This document shows positions 9,481-21,224 of a stretch of 64,000 nt of DNA, in pieces (within the stretch, counting starts at the first letter, position 1; every line of letters starts with the position of its first letter). The stretch comes from Acidobacteriota bacterium (lineage in GTDB: Bacteria; Acidobacteriota; Blastocatellia; RBC074): the NCBI GenBank assembly GCA_016715865.1, contig JADJXM010000006.1, forward strand, positions 257,564 to 321,563, written 5' to 3'. The position numbers and the translations under genes are program-made. The notes under the pieces were generated by a model. It saw nothing but the letters and a program-made list of their open reading frames with translations. It was not told the DNA's origin and ran no database searches.

Positions 9481-10878
9481 CTAATTCCCCTCGCATGGAG
9501 TCCCCTCGACGGGATAGCCTGCATTAACCCAAGCGGCAGTTCCTCCAACGACATTGAAGAGATTCGAGAAACCCCGGCGGGCTAGAATGGAGGTTGCGAT
9601 GCTTGAGCGGTAACCGCCGGCGCAGATGATGGCAGTATCTTTTTCAGGATCGATAGCTGAAATCTCTTCGCCGACATGAGCCAGTGGAGCGTTGATGGCA
9701 GTCGGAGCGTGACCGGATTTATACTCACCTGGCTGGCGAACGTCTATGACCTGCAGGTCGGGGTTCTCCTCAAGCCTGTGTTTGAGCTCGTCGACGGAGA
9801 TCTGAGGGATGGTCTGGACAGGAAAACGGACTTTATTCCAGGCGTATATACCGCCAGAGAGATAGCCCTTGATGTTTTCGATGCCGACGCGCGCGAGACG
9901 GGTGATTGAACTGGTTATCTGTTCATCGTCCTCTGCGATAATGACGACAGGAGCATCCAGCTTGATCAGGGTTCCCGCCCATGAAGCGAACTGTCCTGTC
10001 AGCCCGATATTGAGTGAACCTGGTATGTGCCCCGCCCCGAAGGCGACTGGCTGACGAACATCAAGCACAGTGACCCCGTCTTCAATCAGATCCTGTACAT
10101 CAAGTAACGATAAGGCGGCCGGAGTTGGAAGGTCCTCCAGCAGCTTCGCGCCGCTTCGATTTATCTCGGCATCTTTTGAGAAATAGGCTGGAGCTTCCGG
10201 CAGGTCCGTCGTCATCATCCTGACGAATTCCTGCCGTGTCATCGGCTGAAGCGCGTAGTTAAAACGGCGCTGCTGGCCGATGGTCGACGAAGTCTCACTT
10301 GAGATGTTGCGCCCGCAGAGCGATCCGGCGCCGTGCGCGGGAAAAACTTCGACATCGTCGTCGAGCTTGAGCAGTCTATCGAGACTGTCGTAAAGCATCT
10401 CGGCCATCTGCTCTGAGGTATAGCCTTTCGAGCCTGCCAGATCAGGTCTGCCGACGTCGCCGATGAAGAGTGTGTCCCCGGTCAAAACCTTGAGGGGCCT
10501 GTCCGACACTTCCGTATCGACGACCAGAATCGAGATGCTCTCGGGCGTATGACCCGGCGTCTCCCAAAACCTGAGAAGGACTTTCCCGAGCTTTATCTCA
10601 TCACCATCCCGGACAGCGATGTGATTGAATTCAGCCCCGGCACGCTGCCCGAAGACGATCCTGGCGCCAGTCCGCTCCGCCAGTTCCATATGCCCGCTGA
10701 CGAAATCGGCATGCAGGTGAGTTTCGATCACATATTTGATCTTCAGGCCCTGCGAACCTGCATCGATAATGTACTGATCTACATCGCGCTGAGGATCGAC
10801 CACAGCGGCTTCACCATCGGAGCCGATCAGATACGATGCATGCGCCAGGCAACCGAGATAAAACTGTTTGAAGTACAT
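9481..10878 (-). CDS. MBL-fold metallo-hydrolase fused to tandem rhodanese domains (persulfide dioxygenase-sulfurtransferase, CstB/Blh-like)
   Basis: HxHxDH metal-binding motif (ETHLHADFVSGH) of the metallo-beta-lactamase fold; two C-terminal rhodanese modules with active-site Cys loop (CAGGYRS). Confidence 0.85.
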   Translation of the reverse strand: MYFKQFYLGCLAHASYLIGSDGEAAVVDPQRDVDQYIIDAGSQGLKIKYVIETHLHADFVSGHMELAERTGARIVFGQRAGAEFNHIAVRDGDEIKLGKVLLRFWETPGHTPESISILVVDTEVSDRPLKVLTGDTLFIGDVGRPDLAGSKGYTSEQMAEMLYDSLDRLLKLDDDVEVFPAHGAGSLCGRNISSETSSTIGQQRRFNYALQPMTRQEFVRMMTTDLPEAPAYFSKDAEINRSGAKLLEDLPTPAALSLLDVQDLIEDGVTVLDVRQPVAFGAGHIPGSLNIGLTGQFASWAGTLIKLDAPVVIIAEDDEQITSSITRLARVGIENIKGYLSGGIYAWNKVRFPVQTIPQISVDELKHRLEENPDLQVIDVRQPGEYKSGHAPTAINAPLAHVGEEISAIDPEKDTAIICAGGYRSSIATSILARRGFSNLFNVVGGTAAWVNAGYPVEGTPCEGN

Positions 10879-10892
10879 AAGTCCTCTCCAGG

Positions 10893-11008
10893 AGTGAGTA
10901 AATGAGTAGAAAGTAGAAAGTAGAAAGTAAAAAGTAGAAGGCAGAATGCAATCGCCATCTATCTTTGTACTTTTTACTTTCTACTTTTTACTTTCTACTT
11001 TCTACTTT
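10893..11008. repeat. GTAGAAAG-family inverted-repeat hairpin (B2), ~40-bp arms
   Basis: gagtagaaagtagaaagtagaaagtaaaaagtagaag ... tactttttactttctactttttactttctactttctactt; right arm supplies last 6 codons and stop of amidohydrolase gene. Confidence 0.85.
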
Positions 11009-11962
11009 CATGACCAGTCGTCGCATATTACCGCCAAGGATTGCCCGAGCCTGATCGTAATTCAAACCGATTTCAATCATGGCATTCACCTGAGCCTCGA
11101 AAATCGCGGCGTGCCAGCCGCGCGGGAAGAATGACGAATCGGTGCCGAAGAGCAGGCGCTCATGGCCCGCAACGTCCAGCGCGCGCTTGTAGACAGTCGC
11201 CAGATCGATCGGAGCAGATTGATACTTAATCCAGCCGTTGCTGCTCGAAGTGTCAAGAAAGACGTTCGGGCAAAGATCGGCAAGCATGAGCGCTTCACGA
11301 AACATCCCCGCGCCGAAATGCGGCACGATAAACCGTGCAGTCGTGAATTCAGCAGCCAGCTTGTACAGGTCCAGAGGATTCGAAAAGCGCATATCGAATC
11401 GGCTGGGCAGGCCCAGTTTCTTTCGCGCACCGACTGAAAGGGCGCCGCAATGGACGAAGACGGCCGTTTGCGGGCGCTCAGCGGCGAGCGCGACGACAGC
11501 CTTGACCGTTTCATTGTCGGCCACCGAAAAATGGTGCATGGCGGGAAAGAGACAGACGACGCTCAGATTCATTTCGTCGAAAGCGCGACGGGCGCGATCG
11601 ACGGCATCCGGTCTGGTCGGGTCCAGAAAAAAACCTCCGACTATTCGTCGTGGACAGGACGCGACAGCGACCGCAATCGAAGACTCATCGCCGGGAACGC
11701 TCGACATGAGCATCCCGCCCTCAACTCCATGCCGGTCGAACTCTTCGATCCAGCTGCCTGCGAATTCGGCCGGGTCCTCCGGCGGCATCGTCCAGCCGGT
11801 CATGGATGCGACGCGGCCCATCGGATCGGCATCGCCGCTCAGGTGCGTCCCCTGCCCCGTCAGCGTTCTGAAAAAACCGTCCGAGAAGAAATGAACGTGC
11901 GCATCGAATACTTCGATGTCACCGAATGGAGTAGATTTATTCATAACCTGAATATTATCCAC
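10988..11962 (-). CDS. amidohydrolase-2 family (TIM-barrel metal-dependent hydrolase)
   Basis: N-terminal FDAHVHFF metal-binding HxH motif, conserved C-terminal D (FGTDSSFFP). C-terminal 6 codons derive from repeat element. Confidence 0.7.
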
Positions 11963-12109
11963 GCTTGTGACCAGAGCGGAAATGGCTGGCGGAGTTTGAA
12001 TCGAGAAGGCCGCAAAGGAGCGCGAAGAGAGATTCTGTCTCTTTGCGCTTCTTTGCGGCCTTAGCGATTTAGTTCTCGATCAGTGAAATCTGTTTTCGCA
12101 GCACCAGTC

Positions 12110-12913
12110 TTATTTCTTCAGATACTTTTCGGGAGCCTTGAGCACTGCATCCTTGCAACTCTCGCAGCAGAAATAGACGGTTCGTCCGAAGACCTCTGCC
12201 TTGACGTTCTTATTGACGGGCTCGCCGGTGACAGGGCAGGTCGTAATACCGTCGCCTTTACCGAGAAATGCACTCTCTTCGACCTTTTCACCCGGCAGTT
12301 CATGGCGCTTATGCATGACTGCCATGCCTTCGGCGACGAACTCCGAAACTCCGTCCGAATGCGAATGAAGCAGCTTGACAACGTACGGATCAGTCGTGGT
12401 TTCGATAATCTTGACGCCCTTATCGGTGTTGACGATCTCCATTTTGATCTTGTCAGCGTGCTCGAAGAGCGCCCTGTAAAGCGGATCCCACATGCGAATC
12501 GGCTGCTTCTTTTCAAGCCGGCTCTTCATCGCCCAGACATGCTCGACAATCATGGCCTGAACCTTCGGATCGTCCGATTCAGTGACCGTGACGACTCCGT
12601 TTTCGGTTTTGGTAACAGTTCGGTTGACCTTCTTATGTTCGTCGAAGAGACTGTGAATGGTCTGCATGTCTTCCATACGACCACCCTGGCCGGCACCCTG
12701 GCCCTGCATGCGGCCCTGGCCCATGCCTCTGCCCATCATGCCCTGACCACTGCCCTGACCTGATCCCTGTCCCATTCCGCCTTTGCAACCTTCGCATTTC
12801 TTCTGCTCCTGTTGGCCATGCTGGTGCCCTTGAGCCAGTCCCGTCAGCGAGATCGCCGCAAACAATGCCAAAGCGCCAAAGATCATTGATAGTGTTTTAA
12901 TATTAGTTTTCAT
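12110..12913 (-). CDS. periplasmic Met/His-rich metal-binding protein with C-terminal YHS (TRASH-like) domain
   Basis: Signal peptide; low-complexity MGQG/GQGSGQG Met-rich tract (Cu/Ag-binding-like); C-terminal TCPVTGEPV...[11 protein letters not shown] matches YHS domain Cys pattern; immediately downstream of HME-RND pump. Confidence 0.7.
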
Positions 12914-20091: not shown

Positions 20092-20511
20092 CTACAGGCT
20101 GTCGATCGCCCGCTGCAGTTTCTCGTTGACCATCGCAGCCGACTCATCCAGCTTCGGATTGCCGACTACCGATAACATCTTCACGGCATCGATAGCTGCT
20201 ACTACCGATTGGCCGTCCTCCTCATAAACCACCACATTGCACGGCAGCAACAGACCCAATCCAATCTCCTCCTTCAACGCATGCCATGCGATCGGCGGAT
20301 TGCAGGCTCCGAGTATGACGTAGTCCCGGAAATCGACGCCCAGTTTCTCCTGCATCTTTTCCTTGATGTCGATCTCGCACAAAACTCCAAAGCCTTCCTT
20401 CTTTAACGCTTCGCGCGCCAGTTCCACCGCTTCTCCAAATGCCACCGGCAGTCTCCGCGCATATCCATATCCCATTTTTTCAACAGATTTTTTTATTGCT
20501 TTTTCACTCAT
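20092..20511 (-). CDS. DUF302 domain protein
   Basis: 139 aa, characteristic DUF302 profile (MGYGYAR... [13 protein letters not shown]... ILGACNP); partners DUF2892/ArsR. Confidence 0.75.
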
Positions 20512-20811
20512 CTGGTACCTCCTTAATAATTCGACTATTTCTTATTTCGCATTGCTTATGCCACGATCCCTCAATTCCCCCCGATTATTTCTCTCCTTCC
20601 AATCATCAGCCCTTTAACCTCTTTAAATCAACCATTTAACATTATGTAGCCATTCGGATTCGGAGTAGCACCTCGTGTTGATATTGCTTCCGGAATGCGA
20701 AAAATTCCTCTTAAATCCAACCAGATGATTTATTTTCCCCACCCATCATTCATATCTGCATTTTTTTATTGCCTGTCGCTTCAAAGACCGCTATACTCAC
20801 CACGAATTATC

Positions 20812-20833
20812 TATATAACTATATAGTTATATT
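20812..20833. promoter_or_regulatory. candidate ArsR/SmtB operator: perfect 16-bp palindrome ataactat|atagttat in arsR/DUF302 divergent promoter region
   Basis: Palindrome 45 bp upstream of arsR start, in 365-bp AT-rich divergent intergenic region; ArsR-family repressors bind 12-2-12-type inverted repeats overlapping promoters. Confidence 0.55.
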
Positions 20834-20876
20834 GTCAAGAAGAAAAGTTTTAGAGTAGTAAGAGGTAAAGATAAAG

Positions 20877-21224
20877 ATGGAAGGAAAACCGATGTCGATC
20901 GAAGCGCTGAAGTTGGTGGCGGCGCGCTTCAAGGTGTTATCAGATCCGATGCGGTTGCGGATATTGCAGGAGTTGCAGTCAGGCGAGCAGAGCGTGACTG
21001 CCTTGACAGAGGCGGTCGAGTCGACGCAGCCGAATGTGAGCAAGCATTTGAGGACGTTGCAGGATGCAGGGCTAGTGGTTCGCCGGCAGGAGGGCAACAC
21101 GGTCTTTTATTCGATCGCGGATCCGACGATCTTTCAGTTATGCGATGTGGTCTGTTCGAGTTTGCAGGAGAAGTTCGAAGCGCACGCCAGTCTCTTCGCG
21201 GAAATGGTTCCGGCTGGCAGGTGA
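20877..21224 (+). CDS. arsR: ArsR/SmtB family metalloregulatory transcriptional repressor
   Basis: Winged-helix HTH with FKVLSDPMRLRILQEL and recognition helix ...VSKHLRTLQDAGLV; divergently oriented to DUF302 gene with palindromic operator between. Confidence 0.85.
   Translation: MEGKPMSIEALKLVAARFKVLSDPMRLRILQELQSGEQSVTALTEAVESTQPNVSKHLRTLQDAGLVVRRQEGNTVFYSIADPTIFQLCDVVCSSLQEKFEAHASLFAEMVPAGR

Follow-up and report, generated by a model that had tools for sequence, protein, structure and literature searches.

A candidate reactive-sulfur-responsive gene cluster with a variant ArsR regulator and an RND pump in a Blastocatellia genome

We examined a 64-kb stretch of DNA from the genome of a soil acidobacterium (64,000 nucleotides, hereafter the window), placed in the Acidobacteriota class Blastocatellia by the names that its homologs and the related loci bear, in which a single ArsR-family regulator gene stands opposite an 11-kb co-directional block of reactive-sulfur genes and genes of a tripartite resistance-nodulation-division (RND) pump. 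On balance we think it probable, though far from certain, that the block is a reactive-sulfur-responsive cluster, made up of a variant ArsR with a CxxxC motif in helix α5, a sulfide-linked RND pump with its DUF2892 protein, acidobacterial periplasmic accessory proteins and a CstB-like enzyme. An earlier reading of the same DNA, made from the sequence alone (the first-pass annotation), had described the block as persulfide-stress genes merged with a Cus/Czc-like metal efflux pump under one metalloregulator. We confirm the block itself: the open reading frame (ORF) map and Pfam scans bear out its ten genes, their order and their coordinates. The interpretation placed on it is partly supported. 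The genes, assigned from the ORF map and Pfam unless otherwise said, are as follows.

9481-10878, minus strand: gene for a metallo-beta-lactamase domain plus two rhodaneses (CstB-like)
10988-11962, minus strand: Amidohydro_2 (amidohydrolase) gene
12110-12913, minus strand: YHS/TRASH protein gene
12971-16249, minus strand: RND permease gene
16259-17464, minus strand: membrane fusion protein (MFP, periplasmic adaptor) gene
17526-18965, minus strand: outer membrane protein (OMP, TolC-family channel) gene
18962-19621, minus strand: Tll0287-like (DUF3365 / sCache_heme) gene, with CLNCH
19646-19873, minus strand: DUF2892 / YgaP-like transmembrane (TM) gene
19984-20073, minus strand: ORF for a 29-aa mini-protein, a conserved ORF without annotation that the first-pass annotation had overlooked
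20092-20511, minus strand: DUF302 gene
20877-21224, plus strand: arsR

To see what this ArsR adjoins in related genomes, we retrieved 80 loci with an ArsR profile and then searched them with the window's proteins. The pump module is present at 25 of the 80; another 45 have no pump but carry ygaP-like, tauE and/or CstB-like genes, and 10, mostly truncated contigs, have neither. CstB-like, ygaP-like or tauE genes lie within 10 kb of ArsR in 50 of the 80 loci, and cstB is linked to ArsR in 44. These counts indicate, therefore, that the stable association of the ArsR is with reactive-sulfur genes. At the sulfur-only loci, of which one (L042) was examined in detail, ArsR is found with a YgaP-like rhodanese-DUF2892 fusion, TauE and a CstB-like enzyme, often together with a periplasmic rhodanese. 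The 25 pump loci include DUF2892 in 23 cases, DUF302 in 16, cstB in 5 and DUF3365 in 3, and the YHS gene directly follows the RND gene in 13 of the 15 in which RND is complete. One locus, L093, has all ten genes in the same order as the window and shares its flanking genes too, so the described arrangement is kept in relatives. A gene for sulfide:quinone oxidoreductase (SQR) lies near this ArsR in L050, L066 and L080. The parts also occur in other combinations: in L027 and L058 cstB is found beyond arsR, L082 has YHS, amidohydrolase and DUF302 genes without pump or ArsR, and L083 and L094 have the YHS gene with the pump but without ArsR. Several of the loci (L001, L003, L005 and others) have acidobacterial gene content but are titled 'uncultured Heliomicrobium' or 'Heliobacteriaceae', which is probably a label artefact of submissions of metagenome-assembled genomes.

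The pump can be followed well beyond Acidobacteriota. A tblastn search of plasmids recovered RND homologs at 43-61% identity that form a separate clade, sharing the residues VDDA in TM4, VRNS in TM10 and DPIFQGLA. We examined 11 plasmid-borne loci: the homolog is adjoined by DUF2892 in 9, by an ArsR in 7, by an SQR-like flavoprotein in 6, by a rhodanese in 3 and by DUF3365 in 1 (Sphingomonas). For two of the SQR-like genes the assignment was confirmed (type I and type II SQR), and the Paracoccus locus also carries genes for a persulfide dioxygenase (PDO), YeeE and a sulfurtransferase. The DUF2892 proteins of the window and of these loci are orthologous, with the motif N..Q..FT.(F/W)CP, and 6 of 8 ArsRs aligned from the loci have an α2 Cys and a C-terminal α5 Cys. 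Two Bacteroidota homologs and one from Alloyangia have no sulfur neighbours. At least three phyla show a linkage of the clade with DUF2892, SQR and ArsR, and it is found in Alphaproteobacteria, cyanobacteria and Acidobacteria. Since the homologs adjoin sulfur genes under ArsRs of the type that senses reactive sulfur species (RSS), and do so without a YHS gene, the pump would belong to the sulfur response. The idea of a metal module merged into sulfur genes thus does not hold, as homologous DUF2892-MFP-RND modules themselves sit beside SQR, rhodanese or PDO genes.

The closest counterparts are on Paracoccus denitrificans PD1222 plasmid 1, on Sphingomonas sp. MM-1 pISP1 and in Pseudanabaena ABRG5-3, which share with the window the RND clade, DUF2892 and an adjoining ArsR. 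The proteobacterial and cyanobacterial modules differ in having SQR and an ArsR with the canonical Cys pair. Missing from them are the window's YHS/TRASH protein, DUF302, mini-protein and CstB fusion, and in several cases TolC as well. In Azospira suillum an RND-SQR-MFP operon (Dsui_3440-3443) and a DUF2892 gene are strongly induced by H2S (PMC5358917); we liken this operon to the block by its gene content. RND pumps have also been listed by the Dahl laboratory among the neighbours of ArsR-type RSS regulators (PMC12423496). Together, pump and sulfur genes are a recurrent cross-phylum module, an association that had itself been noted before.

The pump had been read as a heavy metal efflux (HME) RND of Cus/Czc type. 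The permease matches Pfam ACR_tran at 547 bits and falls below the cut-off of every curated NCBIfam model, the best being multidrug RND models (455 bits; RND_permease_2). It scores 278 bits against the HME model TIGR00914 (CusA/CzcA), which has a cut-off of 701, and in the PDB ranking MexK, TriC and MdtB stand above ZneA. Identity is 22.8% to CusA and 22.7% to AcrB. The Met triad of CusA is absent, M573, M623 and M672 aligning to I, V and R, and among the other CusA Met positions tested only M486 is kept. Czc-type HME pumps carry DFGx3DGAx3VEN in TM4, and CusA a single Asp (VDAA); the window's permease has neither signature. Its TM4 instead has the DD of AcrB (VDDA in the clade), and TM10 has R where AcrB has K940 (VRNS in the clade). 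We therefore ruled out a Cus/Czc-like HME pump, on the loss of the Met triad, the DD in TM4 and the sub-threshold model scores. The partner proteins behave likewise. The MFP reaches 205 bits against TIGR01730 (cut-off 94.9), but only 26.6 against the CusB model NF007303 (cut-off 390) and 146 against the CzcB model TIGR00999 (cut-off 319), and it is probably a lipoprotein, judging by an LAASC motif. The OMP (Pfam OEP, 211 bits) is nearer to TolC than to the NodT/CusC model of NCBIfam. By its residues and its neighbours, the permease is neither HME nor a bona fide hydrophobe/amphiphile efflux pump (HAE-1), and classes with a distinct clade tied to sulfide-oxidation genes. The block resembles CusCFBA and CzcCBA in joining a tripartite OMP-MFP-RND pump to an extra small Met/His-rich periplasmic protein, and differs from them in having no Met triad, HME TM4 motif or CusF fold and a regulator other than CusRS or CzcRS.

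The ArsR of the block is a protein of 115 aa with Pfam HTH_20 and HTH_5 matches. It passes the generic ArsR/SmtB metalloregulator model NF033788 (92.9 bits, cut-off 55) and fails all specific NCBIfam models, including BigR (53.8 bits vs 155), TsoR and CmtR. In a PDB search it is roughly equidistant from the solved NmtR, CgArsR, Rv0081, SrnR, SqrR and SmtB, with CgArsR as the second-best match. Alignment, including a hand alignment to SmtB, places no Cys before residue 89, so the α3/α3N CxC site is not present. Of the α5 ligands DxHx10Hx2E only D82 is kept, the equivalents of H106 and H117 being T and S. Likewise, the Cys pair of SqrR and BigR, shared between α2 and α5, was not found, as neither α2 nor α3 has a Cys: SqrR C41 aligns to Q31 (HMMER alignment), SqrR C107 extrapolates to L96, and an alignment with the Paracoccus ArsR puts the canonical α5 Cys at Q97. 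What the protein has instead is a pair at C89 and C93 (LCDVVCSS). Both cysteines and D82 are the same in all 38 homologs compared, the most distant of which is 64% identical. When 1.8 billion cluster representatives were searched with a profile, the LCxxVC motif was present in 139 of the 150 best, each standing for a 50%-identity cluster. On this count the ArsR belongs to a large subfamily, defined by an invariant LCxxVC motif in α5. The protein does have invariant candidate sensing residues, which the first-pass annotation had asked for, and these match no known ArsR metal site.

A survey of ArsR-type RSS sensors reports that all known members share the α2/α5 Cys pair (PMC10054925). We found no characterised member of the LCxxVC subfamily in the literature, and literature searches on an ArsR CXXXC motif and on SqrR with RND pumps gave nothing relevant. 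The ArsRs next to the related pumps show that the position of the α5 Cys varies: Pseudanabaena ArsR1 pairs an α2 Cys with one at the C89 equivalent, Pseudanabaena ArsR2 has only the latter, and a Sphingomonas ArsR pairs an α2 Cys with one at the C93 equivalent. Relative to C93, the canonical α5 Cys falls 3-4 residues further on, at L96 or Q97. Since C89, C93 and Q97 are spaced i, i+4, i+8, they would lie on a common face of α5. Compared with SqrR, the window's ArsR has lost the α2 Cys and carries C93 and C89 one and two helical turns before the C107 position, suggesting that the cleft used by SqrR-type sensors may be used here as well, with the dithiol relocated onto α5.

In other respects the arrangement is like that of the SqrR/BigR/YgaV regulons (Rhodobacter capsulatus, Xylella, Acinetobacter, E. 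coli ygaVP), in which a small, divergently encoded ArsR-family repressor with a thiol pair in or near the α2/α5 cleft acts through a palindromic operator. Their targets too are alike and include rhodanese/YgaP-DUF2892 proteins, PDO-rhodanese fusions, sulfur-anion transporters and, in some genomes, RND pumps (PMC12423496).

The first-pass annotation had pointed to a palindrome, ataactat/atagttat, near arsR. This palindrome is perfect (ATAACTATATAGTTAT, 20815-20830), forms part of a perfect 20-mer and occurs as a single copy in the window, where 0.01 are expected by chance. The elements of the intergenic region are as follows.

20769-20797, plus strand: putative arsR promoter TTGCCT-17-TATACT (consensus scan)
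20810-20838, minus strand: putative promoter of the divergent operon, -35 TTGACA at 20838-20833 and -10 TATAGA at 20815-20810
20813-20832, no strand: operator palindrome ATATAACTATATAGTTATAT, a perfect 20-mer and putative ArsR operator

Of the 80 related loci, 54 have a TATAAC-N4-6-GTTATA site when up to one mismatch is allowed, usually a single site per locus. In most loci, matches lie 30-65 nt upstream of arsR. We aligned the arsR upstream regions of eight loci of both types. TTG and TATACT of the plus-strand boxes are invariant in all eight; they are followed by the palindrome and then by TGTCAA (TTGACA on the minus strand), which is kept beside the palindrome in 8/8 with a TAnnnT hexamer at the right spacing. 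Palindrome and flanking -35/-10 boxes are thus kept in both pump-type and PDO-type loci. The conserved layout of the boxes indicates two face-to-face promoters. The operator fills the 17-nt spacer between -35 and -10 of the minus-strand promoter and covers roughly positions +9 to +28 relative to the arsR promoter, so that one bound ArsR dimer would occlude both. We regard the palindrome as the conserved, putative operator of this ArsR. No second copy was found in the window or near the ArsR-less modules L082, L083 and L094. An Rfam scan found no RNA family in the window, and so no riboswitch in the 290-nt leader.

The product of the gene at 9481-10878 carries Pfam Lactamase_B and two Rhodanese domains. 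It aligns over its full length to PDB 3TP9 (1e-92) and 3R2U (4e-62) and keeps the Cys of HGAGSxCG and the Cys of a C-terminal CxGGxRS, and the middle rhodanese lacks the catalytic Cys. The protein is thus predicted to be a CstB-like persulfide dioxygenase followed by an inactive and then an active rhodanese domain. In this it recalls the Staphylococcus aureus cst operon (CstR-CstA-CstB-SQR), which likewise joins a three-domain CstB-type enzyme to a sensor and detoxification enzymes. The S. aureus operon has a CsoR-family regulator, CstA and SQR, whereas the window's block has ArsR, an RND pump and periplasmic proteins.

At the promoter-proximal end, the DUF302 protein (Pfam PF03625, 86 bits) is cytoplasmic. 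Its relatives in PDB, 1Q9U and 1J3M, are both from structural genomics, and DUF302 has been described in sox clusters (PMC5037610). The gap between DUF302 and DUF2892 has no unusual structure (z = -0.6) and encodes the 29-aa mini-protein VAEWFWPVGIFVGYVIVMRWVLPRFGVPG instead. The mini-protein has a single TM helix and a motif, W.W...Y..LMRWVLPRxGVP, with protein-level conservation across more than 30 loci; it adjoins DUF302 wherever its placement was checked, and no Pfam family was found for it. The DUF2892 protein (Pfam PF11127) has two TM helices and a conserved FTxWCP motif and is the constant companion of the RND clade.

The haem-c protein matches the Tll0287-like Pfam family at 90.9 bits (cut-off 24.1) and aligns to Tll0287 (5B82), keeping the distal Cys of RACAEV and the CLNCH (CxxCH) site. 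Its gene is also found in L081 and L093, and the nearest relative, L001, has no DUF3365; no exact match to the window's protein is on record. Stand-alone sCache_heme proteins with Cys/His ligation have been assigned redox roles (10.64898/2026.02.01.703092), and we regard this stand-alone periplasmic haem-c protein as an accessory part of the block. The amidohydrolase (Pfam Amidohydro_2, 100.6 bits) is cytoplasmic. Its only PDB similarity is weak, to a decarboxylase, and its gene travels with the YHS gene even in a locus without the pump (L082).

The YHS/TRASH protein is the only metal-linked component of the block. It consists of a signal peptide, a variable Gly/Gln/Met tract with a CxxC, a duplicated α-ββ-α core and a C-terminal Cys4 domain, and belongs to a family of 621 homologs. 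The TRASH pattern C226-x22-C249-C250-x2-C253 (reference pattern Cx19-22Cx3C) is invariant in 34 homologs, as are H87, H125, M129, H185, M200, H201 and H204, and about half of the orthologs have a CxxC in the Met-rich N-terminal tract. The protein had been presented as Met/His-rich with a YHS domain. The TRASH cysteines are invariant, but the YHS Pfam score of 25 bits is below the cut-off of 30.3. The tract is rich in Gly, Gln and Met with few His. The duplicated core is modelled by AlphaFold2 (AF2) with pLDDT >90. A Foldseek search of PDB with the model gave no fold match with E below 0.07, and a literature search for such a protein with RND pumps returned nothing relevant. Small DUF7670 proteins occur in or beside the YHS/DUF302/RND modules of L082 (9610-9990 and 17995-18366) and L094 (6187-6558), the one in L094 being encoded between the MFP and RND genes.

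Whether the whole block is transcribed as one unit depends on the gaps between its genes. From DUF302 downstream these measure 18, 110, 24, -4, 61, 9, 57, 147 and 109 nt. Folding shows strong hairpins in two of the nine, and the upstream gaps have no strong structure. The first-pass annotation had held that strong internal promoters or terminators parting the sulfur genes from the pump would refute its reading, and for the last two genes the hairpins answer to this in part. A third hairpin lies beyond the last gene.

9333-9482, minus strand: 150-nt hairpin element of GTTTCCAG repeats, abutting the stop codon of the last gene; -50.9 kcal/mol, z = -4.6
10910-10987, minus strand: hairpin of AGTAGAA heptamer repeats in the amidohydrolase-cstB gap; -37 kcal/mol, z = -6.7
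12004-12062, minus strand: long hairpin, rich in GC, between the YHS and amidohydrolase genes; folding energy of the whole 147-nt gap -56 kcal/mol, z = -5.2

Neither gap hairpin has a clean U-tract. A promoter and terminator consensus scan returned counts at chance level and called no intergenic intrinsic terminator. In L093 the YHS and amidohydrolase genes overlap by 4 nt, and 92 nt precede cstB; the overlap shows that the hairpin at 12004-12062 is lineage-specific. This hairpin may have a role in attenuation, termination or RNA stability, and both gap hairpins look like lineage-specific repeat insertions. The element at 9333-9482 is the likely 3' boundary of the block. Co-transcription from DUF302 to the YHS gene is likely, and read-through into the amidohydrolase and CstB-like genes is uncertain.

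Related repeats are dispersed over the window. Hairpin elements of about 145 bp lie at 8351-8494 and 9333-9482, with another occurrence at 3619-3638; their arms of 25-32 nt consist of GTTTCCAG/CTGGAAAC repeats and enclose loops of about 80 nt. The motif GGAAACTGGAAAC has 5 copies in the window against 0.1 expected, and the elements look REP- or MITE-like (repetitive extragenic palindromic or miniature inverted-repeat transposable elements). Between two of them, a small minus-strand ORF at 8886-9092 has a Flp-pilin-like motif, GQSVVEYSLLL, recognised by eye. The heptamer AGTAGAA forms dispersed tandem arrays (24 matches in the window, 0.16 expected) at 918-1007, 10905-11006, 17494-17525, 30884-30908 and 37602-37612. 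Where two arrays face each other a strong hairpin results, and the amidohydrolase ORF has one array reaching into its 3' end. Just 3' of arsR, beyond the other end of the block, a plus-strand ORF of 338 aa at 21417-22433 carries at its C-terminus a 2Fe-2S ferredoxin motif of plant type (Cx4Cx2C...C; Pfam Fer2, 22.2 bits, cut-off 21). In both types of related locus, at least 11 in all, such an ORF comes directly after arsR, and a penicillin-amidase gene usually follows it.

From the gene identities, the conserved layout of operator and promoters, the synteny, the invariant cysteines and the absent Cus/Czc signatures, we infer an inducer, a cysteine chemistry, a pump substrate and transcription past the YHS gene as follows. 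A homodimer of the variant ArsR would bind the 20-bp palindrome and shut both promoters. Under sulfide, persulfide or polysulfide stress, sulfane sulfur would modify C89 and C93 of α5, probably forming a tri- or tetrasulfide that bridges residues of one helix or spans the dimer axis, and the repressor would then leave the DNA. Derepression would yield DUF302 with its 29-aa membrane partner, DUF2892, the accessory haem-c protein, the TolC-MFP-RND pump and the YHS/TRASH protein and, by read-through, the amidohydrolase and the CstB-like enzyme, which would oxidise low-molecular-weight persulfides in the cytoplasm. Pump and DUF2892 would expel sulfur-derived species across the outer membrane, most plausibly zero-valent sulfur or polysulfanes, or else metal-sulfide complexes.

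Several findings weigh against such a sulfur response. The Cys pair that defines the characterised ArsR-type RSS sensors (PMC10054925) is absent from the ArsR, its BigR score is far below the cut-off, and a Cys4 site between the protomers of the dimer might serve a soft metal or As(III) rather than sulfur. The 64-kb window has no SQR and no tauE homolog. In the close relative L081, arsC and acr3 directly follow ArsR; modules L083 and L094 have neither ArsR nor operator nearby, and cstB is absent after the amidohydrolase gene in L007 and L025. The periplasmic TRASH/YHS partner, conserved with invariant His and Met and a Met-rich tract, looks typical of metal binding. Furthermore, the window has a single operator, strong hairpins precede the amidohydrolase and CstB-like genes, and the pump substrate is purely one that we infer.

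These points lend themselves to other explanations. The block might serve Cu(I) or Ag(I), with a metal-sensing ArsR, a Cus/Czc-like pump, YHS as metallochaperone and the persulfide enzymes dealing with Cu(I)-thiol or Cu(I)-persulfide adducts, a model that we regard as improbable. The TRASH cysteines, the invariant His and Met and the Met-rich N-terminal tract (about half of the orthologs have a CxxC there) would suit it, as would the match of ArsR to the generic metalloregulator model and the weak matches of the MFP to CusB/CzcB-type barrel-sandwich models; the dimer axis, with two α5 Cys from each protomer close by, could offer a thiolate site for metal, and a regulatory link between RSS and copper is documented in Acidithiobacillus caldus (PMC12455602). 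However, the permease lacks the Met triad and most of the TM Met tested and has an AcrB-like TM4, the HME, CusB and CzcB models score far below their cut-offs, and ArsR has no α3, α3N or α5 metal ligand except D82. Elsewhere, homologous pumps have no YHS protein; their neighbours are SQR, PDO or rhodanese genes and their ArsRs have the RSS pair. The sulfur genes stand alone at 45/80 ArsR loci. Of the coupled handling of Cu(I) and sulfur once suggested for the block, the YHS/TRASH protein is the one element that still speaks for it, and the signatures of pump and ArsR speak against it.

Arsenic is raised by L081, where an ArsR about 97% identical to the window's and the operator are followed by arsC (of the low-molecular-weight phosphatase type, LMWP) and acr3 (L081 1-1957), in a locus whose YHS protein is also 97% identical to the window's. 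ArsR would then be an atypical α5-Cys As(III) sensor like AfArsR, and pump and sulfur genes would detoxify arsenic or thioarsenate. The known atypical As(III) sensors do draw every ligand from α5 (PMC10054925), and CgArsR is the second-best PDB match. Yet those sites have three Cys per protomer and ours has two, ArsR mostly has rhodanese, tauE and CstB-like genes around it, and arsC/acr3 lie near ArsR in 1 of 82 loci searched. Arsenic resistance as the general case was rejected on this last count, and for the block at hand we find it scarcely credible. We consider it highly improbable, too, that the pump is an HAE-type exporter of drugs or organic toxins under a thiol-redox ArsR responding to oxidative or electrophile stress, with no tie to sulfur. 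Its best PDB and NCBIfam matches are indeed multidrug pumps (MexK, TriC, MdtB; RND_permease_2), the AcrB-type DD proton relay is present, and the two Bacteroidota homologs and the Alloyangia one have no sulfur neighbours. Against this, its scores are far below the family cut-offs with only 22.7% identity to AcrB, the clade is linked to DUF2892, SQR and ArsR in no fewer than three phyla, and one operon of this kind is induced by H2S (PMC5358917).

A last alternative concerns the extent of the unit and not its substrate. ArsR may control itself and the proximal genes (DUF302 to YHS, or fewer), the amidohydrolase and CstB-like genes being independent units; we hold this to be a real possibility, though not one we would expect. 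The two distal hairpins, the single operator, the shifting place of cstB (across arsR in L027 and L058, missing in L007 and L025) and the occurrence of YHS, amidohydrolase and DUF302 genes in L082 without pump or ArsR all fit a split block. The order in L093, with its 4-nt overlap and its short distance to cstB, does not, and neither does the linkage of cstB to ArsR in 44/80 loci. The hairpins have no clear U-tract and one of them is a dispersed heptamer repeat, the genes are co-directional, and promoter- and terminator-like sites are at chance level.

Within the reactive-sulfur reading, we put forward a wider proposal only tentatively, as one that may well prove wrong: that the ArsR represents a new class of persulfide sensor, with a dithiol wholly on α5 (i/i+4 CxxxC), regulating reactive-sulfur genes across Blastocatellia and probably beyond, and that DUF2892, a two-TM Cys-Pro protein, and the RND clade form a dedicated route by which zero-valent sulfur, polysulfanes or metal-sulfide clusters are exported across the outer membrane; to this route Acidobacteria would have added a periplasmic TRASH/His/Met protein of novel fold. 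The i/i+4 CxxxC geometry may favour tri- or tetrasulfide bridges over disulfides. If the proposal is true, a different invariant Cys pair with the same targets would mean that persulfide sensing arose more than once on the ArsR scaffold, and the export route would explain how Gram-negative cells rid themselves of the sulfane sulfur that SQR produces. The identity of the pump substrate would fill a gap in sulfide detoxification and in sulfur cycling by soil and sediment bacteria. It would also correct the habit of reading every RND pump that adjoins an ArsR as metal resistance.

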